Shown here one piece after another: positions 4,058-50,123 of a stretch of DNA of 64,000 bases (position 1 is the stretch's first letter; every line of letters begins with the position of its first letter). This stretch comes from an uncultured Ruminococcus sp. (lineage in GTDB: Bacteria > Bacillota > Clostridia > Oscillospirales > Ruminococcaceae). Below the pieces are notes generated by a model. It was not told where the DNA came from. It did not search any database and saw nothing but the letters and a program-made list of their open reading frames with translations. The translations under genes were made by a program, and so were the position numbers. The stretch is from NCBI GenBank assembly GCA_945868475.1, contig CAMBLM010000005.1, positions 102,117-166,116 on the forward strand, read 5' to 3'.

Positions 4058-4085
4058 GTAACGATCCCTTTCGCAAAATTCAATA

Positions 4086-4282
4086 GGGAACCTCTAAAAA
4101 CCTCCCTCACGGCAAATTTTCTACGACTTTGCGCATCTTCCGCGTTAGCGAAACTTGAAATACATTCGGAATGTATTCCGTAGTATTATACTGCGTTTCG
4201 CTGCCTTGAAGCTGCGCAAAGTCCTAACGAAAATTTGCGAATAATACGAAGTATTATTTTGTTTCGGCTTTTAGAGAACCCC
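4086..4282. mobile_element. Family-B MITE-like hairpin element, copy B1
   Basis: About 90% identical to the copy at 9609-9787. Ends are GGGAACCTCTAAAAACC ... GGCTTTTAGAGAACCCC, and the interior is a long imperfect palindrome. It lies in the divergent lacZ-like/spoIIAA intergenic region. Confidence 0.75.
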
Positions 4283-4297
4283 AATTATTATAATTAT

Positions 4298-4331
4298 AAT
4301 ACATTTATGGCTTTCATAAATGTATTTTTTG
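4298..4331 (+). promoter_or_regulatory. Perfect 12-bp-stem palindrome followed by a T-run; operator or terminator-like, function unknown
   Basis: AATACATTTATG-gcttt-CATAAATGTATT followed by TTTTT, located between element B1 and spoIIAA. Confidence 0.35.
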
Positions 4332-4439
4332 TTAAAAGTGACAACTTTTTGGCGTTGTAACCACTATTGACAAATTTTTACAGATAAAAAGGTTAAAATA
4401 ACATAGAGATTTAAATATTATGCAAGGAGGATAAAATTT

Positions 4440-4751
4440 ATGCCTGTAAAAATTGAAATAGATGAGGGCGAGAGGAAGCTGACAGCTCATATAATGGGCG
4501 ATATCGACCACCACAGTGCCTCGGAGATACGCGAGGAGATCGATTTTGAAGCAGAACGGCTTCGTCCCGAACTGATGATACTTGATTTTTCCGAGGTCAC
4601 GTTTATGGACAGCTCGGGGATAGGTCTTGTTATGGGAAGATACAAAGCGGCGAAAGCCTACGGCGGAAAAATAACCGTTTCCGGTGCTTCTTCGCAGATA
4701 AAAAAGGTAATGAAGCTTGCGGGTCTTGAACGGCTCGCATCGATAGAATGA
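4440..4751 (+). CDS. spoIIAA: Anti-sigma F factor antagonist SpoIIAA (STAS domain)
   Basis: 103 aa with the STAS pattern FMDSSGIGLVMG. It is the first gene of a spoIIAA-spoIIAB-sigF arrangement and has an AGGAGG RBS. Confidence 0.9.
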   Translation: MPVKIEIDEGERKLTAHIMGDIDHHSASEIREEIDFEAERLRPELMILDFSEVTFMDSSGIGLVMGRYKAAKAYGGKITVSGASSQIKKVMKLAGLERLASIE

Positions 4752-4768
4752 GAAAGGAATGAGAAAAA

Positions 4769-5212
4769 ATGTCGGTAGTTAATGAACTTAAAATATCTTT
4801 TCCGTCAAAAAGCTGTAACGAGAGCATCGCAAGAATGTGCGTTGCCGCCTTTGTCGCAAGCGAAGACCCTACCGTGAGCGAGCTTGCCGAGATAAAGACA
4901 GCTGTTTCCGAAGCTGTCACCAACAGTATTGTCCACGGTTACAGGGGAACGCTCGGAACGGTCAGTATTCACGCGCGTTTTTTTGATGATGGTTTGCTCA
5001 CGATAAAGGTTTCGGACAAAGGCTGCGGTATCCCTGATGTTGAAAAGGCGAGAGAGCCGCTCTATACCTCTGCGCCCGAAGAGGAACGCTCGGGACTCGG
5101 TTTTTCGGTAATGGAAAGCTTTACGGACAAGCTGAAGGTCAGAAGCACCGTCGGAAAGGGAACGACCGTAACGCTCCAGCGCAGGCTCGGTGTACATAAT
5201 ACTAATTTTTAA
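4769..5212 (+). CDS. spoIIAB: Anti-sigma F factor / serine kinase SpoIIAB
   Basis: 147 aa with GHKL-type motifs (EAVTNSIVHGY, DKGCGI, GLGFSVM). Position in the operon fits. The last 4 codons and the stop lie inside the family-A repeat. Confidence 0.9.
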   Translation: MSVVNELKISFPSKSCNESIARMCVAAFVASEDPTVSELAEIKTAVSEAVTNSIVHGYRGTLGTVSIHARFFDDGLLTIKVSDKGCGIPDVEKAREPLYTSAPEEERSGLGFSVMESFTDKLKVRSTVGKGTTVTLQRRLGVHNTNF

Positions 5213-5513
5213 TCAAAGTGTAGACAAAAAATCGGCGCAAAATCCATATAAAGGTCACCTCTAAAAACCACCGGCTAAAGCCTTAGCACCTCATCTGCTT
5301 GCAGATTTTCCGTCATCTTGCACATAAATTTCTTGACATACGACATGTATGCAAATTCTTGCTTTGCAATAACTGCGAAATTTCTATACAATCTGACGAA
5401 AAATCTGACTGCGCATCTGAGGCACTATGGTTTTTAGGTGACCTAAAGCTATTTTCAATAGCTGCAAGATTTTGCTTGATTTTTTGTACACTTTCAGTTT
5501 AAAAATTAGAATA
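5197..5513. mobile_element. Family-A palindromic element (A2 subtype) interrupted by a nested family-B element
   Basis: The left arm (5197-5252) and the outer ~45 nt of the right arm (about 5470-5513) match the copy at 48957-49060 almost base for base. The loop-proximal segment 5448-5469 instead resembles the central mini-hairpin of the copy at 37093-37214. The central loop is split by 5253-5443. Confidence 0.8.
5253..5443. mobile_element. Family-B MITE-like element, copy B3, nested in family A
   Basis: Terminal inverted repeats GGTCACCTCTAAAAACC / GGTTTTTAGGTGACC. It is flanked by a direct TAAA duplication (5249-5252 and 5444-5447). Confidence 0.75.
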
Positions 5514-5542
5514 ACGAAAACTGATCGCCGAAAGGACAGAAT

Positions 5543-6208
5543 ATGAACGGGACTGAAACCGATAAGTTTACAGAAGAAAACCTCGGACTGGTGCGGCTCT
5601 GCGCAAACCGATTCCGAGGAAAAGGGATAGAATATGACGACCTCTACAGTACGGGCTGTATAGGTCTGATAAAGGCTGTCAACGGCTTCGACAGCAGCAG
5701 GGGAGTGAAGTTCTCGACCTATGCCGTCCCCGTTATACTCGGCGAGATAAAACGGCTTTTCCGTGACGGCGGAACAGTCAAGGTCAGCCGAGGCGTAAAA
5801 GAGCTTTCGCTGAAAATAACACGCATCAAGGAGGACTTCGGGCAGAAATACGGCAGAGAACCGCAGATATCCGAGCTTGCCGAGCTTACGGGCGAAAGCG
5901 AGGAAAACATCATCGAAGCCGTCTGCGCCGCCCGTCCCGTGCTTTCGCTGACAGCGGACGACGATGGATCCGACGGCGGACAGATCGATATCGCCGTTGA
6001 AGCGCACGATGAGGAAATGGCTGAAACACTCTCGCTCCACGCCGCTCTGCGGACACTGCCCGAAAAGGATCAGCTGCTTATCTATTACCGCTATTATAAA
6101 GATCTTACGCAAACGCAGACCGCCGAAAAGCTTGGTATGACGCAGGTGCAGGTTTCACGGCGTGAAAAGAAGCTGCTGCTCTCACTGAGAAGCTTTCTGG
6201 ACGGATAA
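5543..6208 (+). CDS. sigF: Sporulation sigma factor SigF
   Basis: 221 aa with sigma-70 region 2 (YDDLYSTGCIGLIKAVNGFD, FSTYAVPVILGEIKR) and a region 4 HTH (TQTQTAEKLGMTQVQVSRREKK). It is the third gene of the spoIIA operon. Confidence 0.9.
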   Translation: MNGTETDKFTEENLGLVRLCANRFRGKGIEYDDLYSTGCIGLIKAVNGFDSSRGVKFSTYAVPVILGEIKRLFRDGGTVKVSRGVKELSLKITRIKEDFGQKYGREPQISELAELTGESEENIIEAVCAARPVLSLTADDDGSDGGQIDIAVEAHDEEMAETLSLHAALRTLPEKDQLLIYYRYYKDLTQTQTAEKLGMTQVQVSRREKKLLLSLRSFLDG

Positions 6209-6388
6209 ATAACATTTGTCTGACCGTTGCGAAGCTGAACTAAGTTTAAGTTGATTCTGCAAGAATGTCACTTCAACGCTGTATGAACAGCTTTGTGATA
6301 TGTCAGCAAAAAAGCGGTCTTCGGTAGGCGATCCTATATCCGCCCGTTTTCGTACAACGCAGCTATGATAGTCTGCACACCAAAAGGG

Positions 6389-6979
6389 TTACACATTTTT
6401 CGCTGTAGATAAAATAATTTCCCCACCCGAGATTTTCAGCATAATATCATTGCCGCTTTGGTAAGCTTCGGTCATACACCCCTTTGAGCAGGCTGCAAGA
6501 TGTTCGGCACGGACGATGAGAACCTCGTTTTCAGCAAGGGTACGCTTTATAATGCCGCCCCGAAGCTGAACGAAAACAGTTCCCGAGCCTGACGCTTCGC
6601 AAAGTTCAAAGCGTTTTTCGCCGAATGTTTTGGACATATACGAAGTCAGCTTTGCACCGCCCGAGGCTGCGAAAAATGCTATCGGAGCGAGCAGGATAGG
6701 AGTGTTATCCGAAACCTCAACGGGATATATCGTGCAGGGGGAAACATCGGGAATGAGAGTTATCTCCGCATTGTCGGCGCAGGAGGTGTATTTCCGTGAG
6801 AAAAGTCTGTCTGCGGAAAGACCGTTCTTCAGCGCATCGATGATGTTGTCCGCCGAGCTTATCTCGCAGATATTCTGTGAGAACCAGCTGTCCGTGCCGA
6901 CTTTGGCACTGAGAAGTTCATTTTTATTAAGGAAAACTGTGAGGATGGGAGAATTATCTCCCTCAATCTTATAGTTCAT
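6389..6979 (-). CDS. AIM24/TIGR00266-like protein (divergent paralog)
   Basis: 196 aa with the same N-terminal pattern (M.YKI.G...P......L) and overall layout as the upstream 225-aa gene. Confidence 0.65.
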   Translation of the reverse strand: MNYKIEGDNSPILTVFLNKNELLSAKVGTDSWFSQNICEISSADNIIDALKNGLSADRLFSRKYTSCADNAEITLIPDVSPCTIYPVEVSDNTPILLAPIAFFAASGGAKLTSYMSKTFGEKRFELCEASGSGTVFVQLRGGIIKRTLAENEVLIVRAEHLAACSKGCMTEAYQSGNDIMLKISGGEIILSTAKNV

Positions 6980-9608: not shown

Positions 9609-9787
9609 GGGAACCTCTAAAAACCTCCCTCACGACAAATTTTCTGCGACTTTGCGCATCTTCTGCGTTAACGAAACTTGGAATACATTCGGAAAATATT
9701 CCGTAGTATTACACTGCGTTTCGCTGCCTTGAAGCTGCACAAAGTCCTAACGAAAATTTGCTCGTGTTCCGGTTTTTAGAGAACCCC
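9609..9787. mobile_element. Family-B MITE-like hairpin element, copy B2, inside the pckA 5' UTR
   Basis: Ends are GGGAACCTCTAAAAACC ... GGTTTTTAGAGAACCCC. It is flanked by direct TAAA (9605-9608 and 9788-9791). Confidence 0.8.
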
Positions 9788-9814
9788 TAAATTATATTAG
9801 GAGGTCTATGTAAA

Positions 9815-18678: not shown

Positions 18679-18723
18679 CAGCACCGCAGCTTTGGTCGGA
18701 AGATCAAAGCTGCGGTGCTGTTT
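18679..18723 (+). terminator. Intrinsic terminator of amt
   Basis: CAGCACCGCAGCTTTG-loop-CAAAGCTGCGGTGCTG followed by TTT. Confidence 0.7.
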
Positions 18724-18827
18724 AATACTAAACACCAATAAAACTATAGACAAAAAATCGGCGCAAAACCCATATATCAGAGTTTTTGCTTGATTTTTTG
18801 TATAGTTTTTAATTGGTGTTTAGTATA
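18724..18827. mobile_element. Family-A palindromic element (A1 subtype)
   Basis: AATACTAAACACCAATAAAACTATAGACAAAAAATCGGCGCAAAACCCATA ... TTTTTGCTTGATTTTTTGTATAGTTTTTAATTGGTGTTTAGTATA. Confidence 0.8.
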
Positions 18828-18937
18828 ATGCCAAACATCAATAAAACTATGGACAAAAAATCATTGCATGATCGATTTGTGCAAGATCATACTCGATTTT
18901 TTGTTAGTGTATGGTTTTTAATTGGTGTTTGGAATAA
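18828..18937. mobile_element. Family-A palindromic element (divergent A1 copy), in tandem with the previous copy
   Basis: AATGCCAAACATCAATAAAACTATGGACAAAAAATC ... CGATTTTTTGTTAGTGTATGGTTTTTAATTGGTGTTTGGAATA. Confidence 0.7.
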
Positions 18938-18945
18938 TTGTAATT

Positions 18946-25983: not shown

Positions 25984-26087
25984 ATTATACCAAACACTAT
26001 TTAAAATTTGGAAAAATCAAGCCGATGATCTCGCATATATAGGGTTTCGGCGCAGATTTTTTCTGTATTTTATTGGTTTTTAGTATT
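25984..26087. mobile_element. Family-A palindromic element (hybrid arms, inverted orientation)
   Basis: The reverse complement reads AATACTAAAAACCAATAAAATACAGAAAAAATCTGCGCCGAAACCCTATA ... GGCTTGATTTTTCCAAATTTTAAATAGTGTTTGGTATAAT. It overlaps the last 5 codons and stop of the 26070 gene. Confidence 0.7.
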
Positions 26088-29000
26088 AGCAGCTTTTGCT
26101 TTTTTCTTCTTTCTGACCGCTCTTGCCGAGAAAATTATCACAAGGACTATGATAATGATCACAACTGCTGTTACTGCGATGAGGAAGATATTCAATGTTT
26201 TGTATACTGCAAGTATTTCGGGTGAATTTCCGCTTGCTTCAAAGCTGAGGTAGCTGCCGATATGACGTGTTTCGGCTTTTTTCCACTCGCCGCTGCTGCT
26301 CTTGACGTATATCTCGGGGTCACGCTTGCTTTCTGCGTTGACGAGATAGCGGAGGTTATGTGTTTCGCTGTTATCGTTAGGAACAGTGAGCATCCAGCTT
26401 TCGCAAAGCTCAGTCTTATCCATAAGGAAGATGGTCGGCGGAGTCTGGTTCACATACTCGTTCTGCTGAACGGGGAGAGTATCATCTTCGGTGAAGATGC
26501 CCTCTGCGAGCCATATCGGTTTGCCGCCGTCACGGCAGTCGTTCGAGCGGACGTTCTTGATGACAGTGAAATATTCGGCTTCGATCTCCTTATCGATATG
26601 GAGATCTTCGAGTGAATCATAGTTCCACTTTGCGTAGCAGTCGTCCTTTGCGGGAATAGCGGGAAGCTCGCTTTCGTCAATGGTGTCGCCGTAGGAGAAT
26701 TCGATCTTATCGACAACGTTGTCATCTGCGATGAACTTCAATGTGAACGTGCGGAATTCCTCGGGGATATTTGGTATTGAGATGAGCTGCTGATAGGGGA
26801 TAGGCTCTGCCGCACCCTTATAGCTTGCACCGTTAAGTCCGCTGAGTTCGTCCGAAACGAAGTAGTTGCCTTCAAATTCGCCGTCGGCCGTGCCGCTTAT
26901 AGCGCCGAAGTAGGACTGGCTGTCGGTGATATCAATGAGTGAATAGCAGTTCATGACTGTATCTGCGCTTCCTGCAATGCCGCCGATGTAGTTTCTGCCC
27001 GAGAGCAGAGCTTTAGCATAGCAGCTGATGATCTTTGCGGAGGATTTGCCCGAGATGCCGCCTACATAGTCGCCGCTTTCGGAGGTGACTTTGCCGAATG
27101 CTGAGCAGTTTTTTACAACGCCGAGGCTCATCTGACCTGCGATGCCGCCTGCGCAGTTCTTCTTAGCGATAACTTCGCCGTAGTTGGTGTTCTTGATAGC
27201 GGCAGCTTTTGTTTCAAGCTTCTGATTGAGCGGCGAGTCGGTCTTGCCCGAAATATCATCTTCGGGGTCGAAGTCATATTCGATAGCCATCTGACCTGCG
27301 ATGCCGCCTATATTGAGGTCGCCGCTGATAGTGCCGTAGTTTGTGCATTTGTAGACCTTGCCGTTTTTGATCTTGTCGGTATCGACATCGGAGGTATCCT
27401 TGATATAATCCTCTTCGTCGTCGATATCGAGCATATCTGTGATGATATCACTGACAACGTAGGTCTGGTCGTTTATCTTCACGAGGTTGTCGGAAAGTGT
27501 CACGCCTGCGTTTGAAGCCTGAACATTGAGCGTATTCATGGCATCGATGAACGAAGTGAGCGAGGAGAAGAGGTTCTCCGTATCGTCCTTTATGCTGTCA
27601 TCGGGAGTGCCTATCTCGACTGTTTCAACTTCGTTGAGAAAATCGAAAAGCTCACTTGTCTGATTGGAAATATCGGTGAAAATATCAGTAGTGTTGGTGA
27701 ATGCCGTAAAAGCGTCAGAGAACAGTCCGAACGAGGAGTTCACGTCTTTTCCTGTATCGGCGGTGTTGTCAAGGATAGTATTGATGTTCTCTGTGGATTC
27801 ATCAGTGCCGTTGATAGCTTCACCGAGGGCTTTGATGCCGTCCGATGCGTCTATAAGACCGTTGTAGATCGTGTCTGAGTCGATATCAACACTGTCGGCG
27901 ATTATTTCTGCACCCGATGAGATAGTACCCATAGCGTCGGAGGCTTTGGAAATGCTGTCGGCGAGGTCGGATAATTCATTGGAGATATCCGGAGGAATAT
28001 CACCGCCGCCCGAAAGTATATCGGATATCGCATGTACAGCATCCGCAATGCCCTGAGTTGCATCGGAAAGCTCATTCAAGCCGGCCTTTATAAGCTCAAA
28101 ACCCGCAGTTGCGCCTGTAGAACCGTCCGAAGCGGAGCTGTTGAGGGAGTCGGCGACCTTTTTCAGTCCGTCACCTATCTTGGTGGAAGCATCGTTAGCT
28201 TTTTCCGAGGCTTCCTTTATTGAATCGGAGAGCTTTTTCAGCTTATCGACGGAATCATCGGTGTATTTCTGTGTTCCCGAAAGGCCGTCGAAAGCTTCGG
28301 AAAGTCTGTCAGAGCCTGTGGAAAGGCTGTTTGTGGCATCAGGTATAAGTCCTGTTATTTTGTCAAGACGTTCGATAGCATCGGAGATGACTGCGCTCGT
28401 GCGGTCGATTTCCGATGTTACATGATCGCCGTAATCGGTGAGCTTCTGCTGAATATTGTCGGCACTGTCTGTTGCGCTCTGCAAATAGCCCGATGCGCTC
28501 TCAACAGTTGAATTTATGGAGAGTGAATCATCGTTTGTTTCGTTTATTGCTGTGTCGATGAGGTTTGTGAGCTTTTCAAGCTCATCTTTCAGCTCATCCA
28601 TATTGTCGGGGTTGATGTTAACAACGAGATAAGGTTCCATCTGACCTGCAATGCCGCCGATGTCTTTCCTGCCGTTGAGTCGTCCATAGTTGCTGCAGTT
28701 TATGATAAGTCCCGAGCTTCTGCCTGCAATACCGCCGATGTTGTAGCCAACGTGGGGATAGCCGATGCTTCCGCTGTTTTCACAGCTGAATATCGTACCC
28801 GTTGAATAGCCTGCAATTCCGCCTGTATCGGTCGCAGATGAAGTTTCATCCGAGGACGATGATTTTTTTGTGTAGCTGTCAACGTCCGTGAGTGTTGAAA
28901 GGTCGATGTCTTCAAGGCTGTGCTTCTTTTCCTCGTTCGTGGTGTTGACCGAGGCTGCATTTATGCTCTGGACGATATTGCCGCTGTTGTTTCCGACAAC

Positions 29001-37092: not shown

Positions 37093-37214
37093 TAATGCTA
37101 AACACCAATAAAACTATAGACAAAAAATCTGTGCAAAATCCATATCAAGCTGTTTTTAACAGCTGCGAGTTTTTGCTTGATTTTTTGTATAGTTTTTAAT
37201 TGGTGTTTAGCATA
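37093..37214. mobile_element. Family-A palindromic element (A1 subtype with extra central mini-hairpin)
   Basis: AATGCTAAACACCAATAAAACTATAGACAAAAAATCTGTGCAAAATCCATA..AGCTGTTTTTAACAGCT..TTTTTGCTTGATTTTTTGTATAGTTTTTAATTGGTGTTTAGCATA. Confidence 0.8.
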
Positions 37215-39328: not shown

Positions 39329-39431
39329 TACAAGAGTAATATTTTTGTGAAATGTTACAAAACACGGCTTGTAATTATAGTAAAAACAGCCATATCCGAG
39401 AATTACCCGAATATGGCTGTTGTGATCCTAT

Positions 39432-39520
39432 ATAATGCTAAACACCAATATAAACCTGTTAAAAACAGCTACGAGATTATCGGCTTGATTTTTTCCAAAT
39501 TTTAAATGATGTTTAGTATA
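39432..39520. mobile_element. Family-A palindromic element (short hybrid copy)
   Basis: ATAATGCTAAACACCAATATAAACCTGTTAAAAACAGCTACGAGATTATCGGCTTGATTTTTTCCAAATTTTAAATGATGTTTAGTATA. Confidence 0.65.
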
Positions 39521-39525
39521 AAGTT

Positions 39526-48956: not shown

Positions 48957-49060
48957 TAATACTAATTTTTAATCAAAGTGTAGACAAAAAATCGGCGCAA
49001 AATCCATTTATTCGAGCTTTTGCTTGATTTTTTGTACACTTTCAGTTTAAAAATTAGTAT
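48957..49060. mobile_element. Family-A palindromic element (A2 subtype, intact)
   Basis: TAATACTAATTTTTAATCAAAGTGTAGACAAAAAATCGGCGCAAAATCCAT ... TTTTGCTTGATTTTTTGTACACTTTCAGTTTAAAAATTAGTAT. Its right end supplies the last codons and stop of the 49047 gene. Confidence 0.85.
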
Positions 49061-50123
49061 ATGTTTTTTCAAGCAGTTTCAGACCCTCATGCATATCCTG
49101 TCCGAGGATTTCCTGCGTTTTGGAGAAATTATATTTTTCGTGAAGCTTGTCGTGAACTTTGAGAAAGGATTTTTTGCCGTATTTATGTATGAACATAGCC
49201 TGCGCTTTTGCGGAGTTCGCGCCGTCATTGCCCTCAATATAGAAGCCTTTGTGACAGCTTTCGATGTCGGCACATTCGTAACAGCCGTCAATGCCTTTTT
49301 CGGTACAGCAGGTCACGTTCGGGCATTTTTTATCGGGTGAGCAGGTCGCAAACGAGCAAACGTTATATTCCGTCCGACAGCCGCCGCACCATTCACTCAG
49401 GAAGCAATGATTGCAGGAAAATCCACAGTAGGCAACGGGGGCAACGCCTTTCCGTGCAAGTTTGCAAAGCTTGTTTTTTATGCGGAGCATTGCTTCAATG
49501 TGCATTATCCAATGTCGGCTGAACGGCATTTTTATCAATCCGCGGATATCCTTTCCGCACCAATAGTCGATAAGCCAAACTGCATTTTCATCATCGCTCA
49601 CGCAACCCGAATCGGCAACTCTTTTTCTGTCTTCTTCGGTAAATTTCCGCTTCGTCTGCGAAAATTTCATATTCAAAAGTATATCGTTCGTTGAAAGCAT
49701 AACAGCCTTTGCATATTCATAAAGCTTCGCAATATCAAGCTTTCGGGAAAAATCCGCAATAGCTTCGCCCTGAAGCTCGTTTCCCGTGGTGATGATAGGG
49801 GAGTGGTTGCTTTTGTCAAAGCCGTTCGCAAAAAGTATCTGTTCATCATTCACGATAAGCGTGTGCATAACGATATCTTCAATGCGAAAAATATGCCATA
49901 TCGAGTAGGCGAGGGTCTTGCTGTGATAGCCGTCTGCGCCTGCGAACGGCATTTCGGAAAAAGCCTTTTCGGGATAGCCGTTCACGATTTGAGTTATCTG
50001 TTCAAAAAGGCTGCTCCGCAGTTCGATAAGCTTGCTGATGCCGCCCTTAAATGTGCTTTCCTTTTTGATAAGTCCCTGCATTTCGGCGTTCATTTCCGAC
50101 CATTCTTTGTTCATATATGTCAC
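49047..50123 (-). CDS. DinB-like domain fused to a Cys-rich DUF3795-like domain
   Basis: 358 aa. The C-terminal half reads YCGFSCNHCFLSEWCGGCRTEYNVCSFATCSPDKKCPNVTCCTEKGIDGCYECADIESC. Confidence 0.6.
   Translation of the reverse strand: MTYMNKEWSEMNAEMQGLIKKESTFKGGISKLIELRSSLFEQITQIVNGYPEKAFSEMPFAGADGYHSKTLAYSIWHIFRIEDIVMHTLIVNDEQILFANGFDKSNHSPIITTGNELQGEAIADFSRKLDIAKLYEYAKAVMLSTNDILLNMKFSQTKRKFTEEDRKRVADSGCVSDDENAVWLIDYWCGKDIRGLIKMPFSRHWIMHIEAMLRIKNKLCKLARKGVAPVAYCGFSCNHCFLSEWCGGCRTEYNVCSFATCSPDKKCPNVTCCTEKGIDGCYECADIESCHKGFYIEGNDGANSAKAQAMFIHKYGKKSFLKVHDKLHEKYNFSKTQEILGQDMHEGLKLLEKTYTNF

Follow-up and report, generated by a model that had tools for sequence, protein, structure and literature searches.

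How do spoIIAB and sigF, consecutive genes of the sporulation operon spoIIA, come to stand 330 nt apart in an uncultured Ruminococcus sp.? The distance separates the spoIIAB stop codon (5212) from the sigF ATG (5543) in a 64,000-nt stretch of its genome (GenBank assembly GCA_945868475.1, contig CAMBLM010000005.1, positions 102,117 to 166,116 of the forward strand), which we refer to as the window. The question matters because commitment of the cell to sporulation depends on the SpoIIAB/sigma-F pair, a switch sensitive to stoichiometry. The original prediction, made from the letters of the window alone, had reported the 330-bp spacing and attributed it to two successive insertions, with one miniature inverted-repeat transposable element (MITE; here, element A) splitting the junction and a second (element B) splitting the first. 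The spacing is as reported, and the nested insertion is supported by the copy sets of the two elements, by candidate parent insertion sequences (IS), and by three allelic states of the junction: empty, A only, and A with B. Taken as a whole, two MITE transpositions that left a composite tolerated as a passenger of the operon form the best explanation, to which we give a probability of about 0.8.

A composite insertion between spoIIAB and sigF

Element A is a palindromic MITE (5200-5511, + strand) bounded by TAA at 5197-5199 and 5512-5514, and its loop holds element B (5253-5443, + strand), a 191-nt MITE with the terminal inverted repeats (TIRs) GGTCACCTCTAAAAACCA and TGGTTTTTAGGTGACC. The predicted TAAA on both sides of B is present in the sequence: the left one (5249-5252, + strand) lies within the A loop and is the target used by B, and the right one (5444-5447) is its duplication. 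The left arm of A with the left part of its loop (5200-5252, + strand) is 98% identical to window positions 48957-49010, and L134 and L141, two of the A-only alleles, have an identical left arm (loci from public assemblies carry L numbers throughout). The right part of the loop, which contains the mini-hairpin AGCTATTTTCAATAGCT, and the right arm (together 5448-5511, + strand) are 96% identical to 49015-49061, and the same loop form occurs in the A copy at 37096-37212. When the spacer is compared with the window by blastn, the arms at 5197-5250 and 5467-5513 are 98% and 96% identical, respectively, to the uninterrupted copy at 48957-49061 and 86% identical to 37093-37214. Cutting out 5253-5447 (B and one TAAA) yields a 112-nt A with 97 to 98% identity to both the 48960 copy and the A-only alleles, save for a 17-nt loop hairpin that is also found in the 37096 copy, and thus restores an A-like loop as had been expected.

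The spacer had also been described as consisting entirely of element A, which is correct for most of its length and fails at both ends. A starts at 5200, inside spoIIAB, such that 5200-5212 is A sequence that supplies the last 2 nt of codon N143, the codons T-N-F, and the stop codon; these A-encoded SpoIIAB residues fall past residue 140, where the match to the family profile ends. The last 28 nt (5515-5542, + strand) are native: they comprise cgaaaacTGA, once the end of spoIIAB, and the ribosome-binding site (RBS) of sigF (AAAGGA, 8 nt before the ATG). The native junction tcgccgaaaggacagaatATG is common to the window, the A-only alleles, and the empty alleles with 97% SigF identity (one identical, the others with tcAcc). 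The RBS and its surroundings are likewise the same in these three groups, and L133 and L136 differ from the window in the RBS surroundings. The only open reading frame (ORF) within the insert is a 67-aa frame with a TTG start (5299-5502) that has no support.

Public assemblies that encode the exact SigF protein or its closest relatives supplied the alleles of the junction. With an identical SigF (100%), the window, L001-L003, and L005-L008 carry A and B together, with a gap of 311 to 332 nt between spoIIAB and sigF. Four loci with 97 to 98% SigF identity (L134, L141, L142, and L144) carry A only and have a gap of 118 nt. The junction is empty in L127-L132 and L135 (SigF 97%, gap 18 nt), in L133 (96%, 31 nt), and in L136-L140 (81%, 3 nt). 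All eight junction-spanning contigs with the identical SigF, which come from different samples, possess both elements, and these contigs are 99.1 to 99.8% identical over the window-matching part (10.8 to 16.2 kb) of the 20-kb loci. The empty alleles have a single TAA at the site of the left duplication (5197-5199), the A-only alleles hold A at exactly the same TAA as the window, and at the position of the right TAA (5512-5514) the A-only alleles read TAC. The empty alleles with 97% SigF identity read ..gtacaTAAtgatgagTGAtcaccgaaaggacagaatATG and encode a 146-aa SpoIIAB. SpoIIAB of the empty alleles ends in ..GVHNDE* or ..GVHNNE* (146 aa), in contrast to ..GVHNTNF* (147 aa) in the window; if A and one TAA are removed from the window, SpoIIAB ends in ..GVHNEN* and the ATG follows after 20 nt, the architecture of the empty alleles. 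The original prediction had proposed a search for empty sites in relatives: they exist, with junctions of 3 to 31 nt, and the A-only state is found as well. A 330-nt spacer conserved across the genus without repeat character would have spoken against the prediction, and the series shows no such conservation. A further junction allele is possibly represented by L143, in which SigF is 99% identical and the contig starts 68 nt upstream of sigF (L143:1-68) with ..ggaattagtaTAAaaattagtaTAAcgaagac, apparently a duplicated or rearranged right end of A.

The identity of the operon is based on profile matches and gene order. spoIIAA (4440-4751, + strand), encoding an anti-sigma-F antagonist with a STAS domain, has its best match in TIGR02886 (92.7 bits, under the cutoff), and its protein scores over the cutoff of the NCBIfam model TIGR00377 for anti-sigma factor antagonists. 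The anti-sigma F factor gene spoIIAB (4769-5212, + strand) matches TIGR01925 at 186.5 bits against an equivalog cutoff of 135, and this profile match ends at residue 140. The best match of sigF (5543-6208, + strand), the gene of sporulation sigma factor F, is TIGR02885 (223 bits, under the equivalog cutoff), and its name is supported by the fact that it stands after spoIIAA and spoIIAB. Each of the three genes has a family-level match, and the order spoIIAA-spoIIAB-sigF of a spoIIA operon is kept in all relatives.

The A and B families

Element A is multicopy in the window, where blastn locates further copies at 18723-18938 (two in tandem), 25984-26088, and 39430-39521. The window copies are palindromes of approximately 100 to 117 nt that start with TACTAA or TGCTAA and end with TTAGTA or TTAGCA. 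The closest uninterrupted copy (48960-49059, + strand) belongs to the same subfamily, has the short loop, and is 97% identical to the reconstructed A. The copy at 37096-37212 (+ strand) has the long loop with the mini-hairpin and TAA on both sides, as has a shortened copy at 39436-39518 (+ strand), and the tandem pair at 18726-18934 (+ strand; copies at 18726-18825 and 18829-18934) shares one TAA between its members.

A scan of metagenome sequences with a 19-mer from the commoner A subfamily returned at least 120 stretches, and we extracted 98 distinct short copies (in L011-L264). A is 100 to 119 nt long and noncoding, with TIRs in all copies inspected, as expected of a MITE. Identical 3-nt flanks are present in 79 of the 98 copies (TAA/TAA in 43 and TTA/TTA in 36), and 7 copies have mixed flanks. 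A makes a 3-bp target duplication, TAA or TTA, which we abbreviate as TWA. Two other accounts of these flanks were rejected. A 2-bp TA duplication, the expectation for the IS630 family, cannot produce them, since the middle base of TWA is duplicated as well and covaries between the two sides. Flanks that were part of the A TIR would, when inverted, pair TAA with TTA, a combination found in only 7 of the 98 copies.

A candidate parent of A is a 1,118-nt element (L261:8823-9940) that shares its first 30 nt and last ~19 nt with A, is bordered by TAA at each end, and carries the gene of an IS630-family transposase (NF033545, 139 bits; cutoff, 100). A similar IS630-family element with A-like ends is present at L214:642-1755. 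IS630-family elements are described as inserting at TA and duplicating this dinucleotide (PMC2170065), in contrast to the 3-bp TWA that flanks the elements in L261 and L214 and A itself. A therefore lacks the 2-bp duplication that defines the family while the transposase match to IS630 stands; the most fitting description is that of an IS630-related element whose duplication is atypical.

The prediction of two repeat families holds directly for A; B is single copy in the window, and its family is borne out by outside data. Neither a TIR search allowing three mismatches nor relaxed blastn found a second B copy in the window, so the family status of B rests only on sequences from elsewhere. A second copy, 80% identical, lies approximately 10 kb upstream in contigs of the same species (L002:75-229). 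A 20-mer from B occurs in at least 116 genomic stretches in species-representative metagenome-assembled genomes (MAGs) of Oscillospiraceae and Ruminococcaceae, and among the matches listed, at least 19 of 80 loci lie in one MAG. Of 74 full-length copies extracted, 59 are bounded, immediately outside the TIRs, by exact direct repeats of 4 nt, AT rich in sequence; when the pairing of left and right flanks was shuffled, there were 7.8 such copies on average and at most 17. TAAA, found at seven copies, is among the commonest duplications of the family. B is noncoding, and TIRs are present in every copy inspected. B copies range from 170 to 193 nt and most measure 170 to 172 nt, with the window copy belonging to a 191- to 193-nt variant that has a 21-nt central insert.

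Elements of the IS5 group are about 1.2 kb long and make a 4-bp duplication according to ISfinder descriptions. The candidate parent of B is a 1,242-nt element (L029:5778-7019) with the ends GGGCATCTCTAAAAACC and GGTTATTAGAGGTGCCC that encodes a 329-aa IS5-family transposase (NF033581, 269.5 bits; cutoff, 140); this copy lacks a matching duplication (TTTA versus ACAA) and comes from a MAG of another species. The TIR match to an IS5-family element and the 4-bp duplication are those expected of an IS5-family-derived MITE. With TIRs, duplications of fixed length, many copies, empty sites, and ends that match those of IS elements, A and B both have the sequence characteristics by which bacterial MITEs would be recognized. 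The plasmid collection returned no matches. The phage collection returned only four records with partial B-like matches (MT835572.1, MT835489.1, MT838104.1, and MT835885.1; 71 to 100% identity over 31 to 153 nt), all of them unannotated "Bacteriophage sp." contigs from human feces.

The B copy at the junction varies among samples far more than its flanks do (L005:5914-6080, L008:2732-2898, L001, and L010). In some of these copies the center is 21 nt shorter, and some end in ..TTTTTAGATGCGACC. This variation points to either gene conversion among the B copies or collapsed repeats in the assemblies.

The insertion events and their likely consequences

Sequence comparison shows two insertions. 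In the first, a palindromic A of approximately 100 to 120 nt entered spoIIAB at a TAA, 13 nt ahead of its original stop codon, and duplicated this 3-bp TWA target; three A-encoded codons and a new stop codon took the place of the last two spoIIAB codons, and sigF with its own RBS was shifted approximately 100 nt downstream. In the second, a 191-nt B entered TAAA in the A loop and duplicated this 4-bp AT-rich target. The A-only alleles have the short loop CCATATATGCGAG, and the window loop without B reads CCATATAAAGCTATTTTCAATAGCTGCAAG. The extra 17-nt mini-hairpin is a genuine A variant, as the 37096 copy has the same one, and it includes the TAAA used by B. Since the short loop of the A-only alleles lacks this target, the direct precursor of the composite must have been a long-loop A. 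The reverse nesting is found in L030:687-982 and L064:3981-4276, where A lies inside B at a duplicated TAA, and the two families evidently insert into each other.

The original prediction expected a very long hairpin at the junction, and the predicted fold agrees. RNA from 5190-5545 forms one long hairpin with a minimum free energy (MFE) of -104.7 kcal/mol (z score, -7.85), compared with -44 kcal/mol for A without B, -36 for an A-only allele, and -3 for an empty junction. In the MFE fold, the stem base includes the spoIIAB stop codon, and the native stretch with the sigF RBS stays outside the hairpin. A terminator scan found no intrinsic terminator (a G+C-rich stem followed by a U-run) on either strand of 5197-5542, and with the insert free of terminator-like sites, we rejected a classical attenuator. 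Rfam gave no match at an E value of ≤1 in 4200-6400, and a known riboswitch, leader, or small RNA was rejected as well. Given that it carries no terminator-like signature, the composite is most likely transcribed within the spoIIAA-spoIIAB-sigF mRNA, where it would form one long imperfect hairpin; the intact RBS would still allow sigF to be translated. The ratio of nonsynonymous to synonymous substitution rates (dN/dS) of sigF is 0.02 to 0.07 in every comparison with relatives, the window included, which gives no sign of decay and does not suggest loss of function. On this reading the operon would tolerate the insert as a passenger, and any effect on the RNA would be modest at most: the hairpin might be a target of a double-strand-specific RNase or might slow the termination of spoIIAB translation at the stop codon in the stem.

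Several observations weigh against two insertions and a neutral composite. The mark of a long-loop A without B at this junction would be the k-mer AATCCATATAAAGCTATTTTCAATAGCTG next to sigF, and a 29-mer over the B-empty junction had no match in metagenome_contigs, the sole collection scanned. A deletion of 17 nt and a single substitution are needed to derive the observed A-only alleles from the long-loop precursor. Past the right TAA, the next 7 nt read cgaaaac, cgaagac, or cgaagaa in filled alleles and tgatgag or taatgaa in empty ones, so the empty alleles are not exact pre-insertion sites; the derived right flank that the window shares with the A-only alleles argues in turn for a single origin of the A insertion. 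The whole sigF of the A-only allele L134 is closer to that of the empty L127 (95.9%) than to that of the window (92.2%), whereas in 5025-5725 L134 is nearest to the window by sliding-window identity (93.5 to 97.5%). This mosaic implies that the history of the locus includes recombination or repeated events, and recombination seems to have carried the junction haplotype from one lineage to another. A simple tree-like history was rejected on the same grounds, and the mosaic around the junction leaves the insertions undated. Most of the sigF divergence behind the dN/dS values may predate the insertions, and cotranscription and neutrality of the composite, although most likely, are read from sequence features.

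Other origins of the composite have to be weighed against this account. It has practically no chance of being an assembly artifact in which repeats were misjoined into the junction: eight assemblies made independently from different samples run through the complete insert into the same flanks, and independent A-only assemblies have the same site. The repeats do break or misjoin some contigs here. In L004:9300-9700 (GCA_045124355.1, JBGVLQ010000049.1), B and the right A arm follow an unrelated left flank, and B connects sigF to an unrelated locus that has a 233-aa ORF and, upstream of it, RF-1; the left half of this B has three single-nucleotide polymorphisms typical of another copy, which points to either misassembly across the repeat or real recombination between B copies. 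L009 and L010 end inside B. It is improbable that the composite arrived in a single event, in which either a preformed A::B transposed via the ends of A or gene conversion replaced a resident short-loop A with a long-loop A::B. With intact A arms, a composite should still be mobilizable, the A-only alleles here have a different, short loop without the TAAA target, and the polymorphism of the junction B mirrors that of other B variants (the 170-type center and the GATGCGACC end), which is compatible with conversion between copies. However, none of the 73 other full-length B copies is flanked by A arms in ~2 Mb of related sequence. The insertion site and the derived 7-nt right flank are common to the window and the A-only alleles, which argues that A was already present, and the B polymorphisms may be artifacts of metagenome assembly across repeats, as in L004, which is chimeric through B, and in L009 and L010.

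Given two insertions, the passenger status of the composite competes with functional alternatives. The string TTGCAA-17-TACAAT within B (5364-5392, + strand), predicted as a possible promoter that uncouples sigF from the operon, is present and faces sigF, as does TGTACA-16-TAGAAT in the right arm of A (5485-5512, + strand). Both resemble sigma-70 promoters at only 9 of 12 consensus positions, and the string in B belongs to a minority variant. MITE-borne promoters are documented for Correia elements (PMC2649163), yet it is very unlikely that either string would drive sigF apart from the operon promoter. Matches of 9/12 are common in this AT-rich DNA (9 found versus 2.4 expected in shuffles, mostly in intergenic AT-rich sequence), and the B motif occurs in only 6 of 62 distinct copies, those with the 21-nt central insert; it is missing from the + strand of 55 of the 62 and is found on the - strand of none. 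At this very locus, L005 and L008 have the short B center without the -35 element. Expression of sigF without matching SpoIIAB would be expected to be harmful, given the SpoIIAB/sigma-F partner switch, which further weakens the promoter idea. We consider it doubtful that the insert was co-opted for regulation, with a hairpin that would be cut by a double-strand-specific RNase or would attenuate or stall, alter the SpoIIAB:sigma-F ratio, and be kept for tuning sporulation. The very stable predicted hairpin (-104.7 kcal/mol and z score of -7.85 versus -3 kcal/mol for the empty junction), the spoIIAB stop codon within the stem base, and the presence of the insert in 8/8 spanning contigs of the lineage are in its favor. 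There are also precedents in transcribed Correia elements that are bound or cut by RNase III (PMC2649163) and in BIME and ERIC elements in operons that alter the expression or stability of neighboring cistrons (PMC3049150). But no stem is followed by a terminator-like U-run, fixation in one closely related population (99.1 to 99.8% identity) would result equally from hitchhiking or drift, and sister lineages retain junctions of 3 to 31 nt. The lineage has in addition acquired a third MITE, upstream of the operon; this points to a general burst of insertions and not to selection for this one. A related idea, that the nested ~310-nt double palindrome might be an RNA control point at which cleavage or stalling uncouples sigF from spoIIAB and shifts the anti-sigma:sigma ratio, is unlikely; if true, lineages with A and B, A only, and an empty junction would differ in their readiness to sporulate.

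The third MITE, element C (4082-4286, + strand), lies approximately 150 nt upstream of spoIIAA and belongs to a family of approximately 180 to 205 nt. Its TIRs, GGGAACCTCTAAAAACC and GGCTTTTAGAGAACCCC, are related to those of B, with the core CTCTAAAAACC common to both, and a second C copy in the window (9609-9788) has TAAA on both sides. C is matched at 99.5 to 100% in L001-L003 and L005-L008 and is absent from L127, L131, L133, L134, and L141 in the same alignment in which it is present in L003. Because C is found only in the window lineage, the spoIIA locus of this lineage has gained three MITEs. Downstream of sigF, the window has 180 nt (6209-6388) against approximately 500 to 770 nt of poorly alignable sequence in L127:2667-3168 and L141:1867-2636, probably a further insertion/deletion polymorphism.

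Comparison with known systems

The natural series of empty, single-MITE, and nested-MITE junctions occurs in common gut metagenome bacteria and offers a ready system in which to ask how much structured insert can be accommodated between the genes of an operon and whether the expression of one cistron relative to another is tuned by MITEs. The analysis also defines A and B as abundant Oscillospiraceae MITE families, with C as a third, related one, and provides a candidate parent IS for each of A and B, including one IS630-related family with a 3-bp TWA duplication. The same repeats break and misjoin metagenome assemblies, as in L004, L009, and L010. In the literature searched, no paper gives the TIR strings, a description of the three families, or a MITE in spoIIA; A and B are apparently undescribed.

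The kind of event, MITE nesting among small repeats, is already known, and the present case comes from a different clade. Three features distinguish it: the insert separates two cistrons of a developmental switch, the natural series of alleles is complete, and the IS630-related family makes an atypical 3-bp duplication. The closest parallels are the small repeats of pneumococci. The Repeat Unit of Pneumococcus (RUP) is a 107-bp MITE with ends like those of IS630-Spn1, and BOX, RUP, and SPRITE elements have inserted into one another (PMC3049150). Like RUP, A is a noncoding palindrome of about 100 to 117 nt with ends that match an IS630-family IS, is present in many copies per genome, and forms clusters and tandems (window 18726-18934), and like the pneumococcal repeats, it nests with another repeat family, here in both directions. 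A differs in duplicating 3 bp (TAA or TTA), whereas IS630-family elements duplicate TA (PMC2170065), and in its Oscillospiraceae host and unrelated sequence. In addition, the nesting lies between two cistrons of an operon, a position between cotranscribed genes that the pneumococcal study found to be disfavored (PMC3049150).

The Correia elements (CREE) of Neisseria, for which promoter activity, IHF binding, and RNase III cleavage have been shown experimentally (PMC2649163), resemble A and B as short TIR elements that may lie within transcripts, with a hairpin (predicted for A and B), promoter-like strings near the ends, and presence/absence polymorphism between strains. In contrast to CREE, the promoter-like motif of B is not a family feature, A and B are known here from strings and predicted folds, and the targets differ (TA for CREE, TWA for A, and 4 bp for B). 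B shares with IS5-derived MITEs a 17- to 18-nt TIR that matches the ends of a 1,242-nt IS5-family element and the 4-bp duplication, and it differs from them in that its candidate parent copy (L029) lacks a matching duplication and comes from the MAG of another species. REP/BIME and ERIC palindromes, which are described as lying between operon cistrons in enterobacteria and changing the relative expression of upstream and downstream genes (PMC3049150), are similar in placing a stable palindrome between the cistrons of an operon. Unlike these, A and B have long TIRs, target duplications, and the ends of IS elements with DDE transposases, which mark them as cut-and-paste derivatives rather than elements of the REP type.

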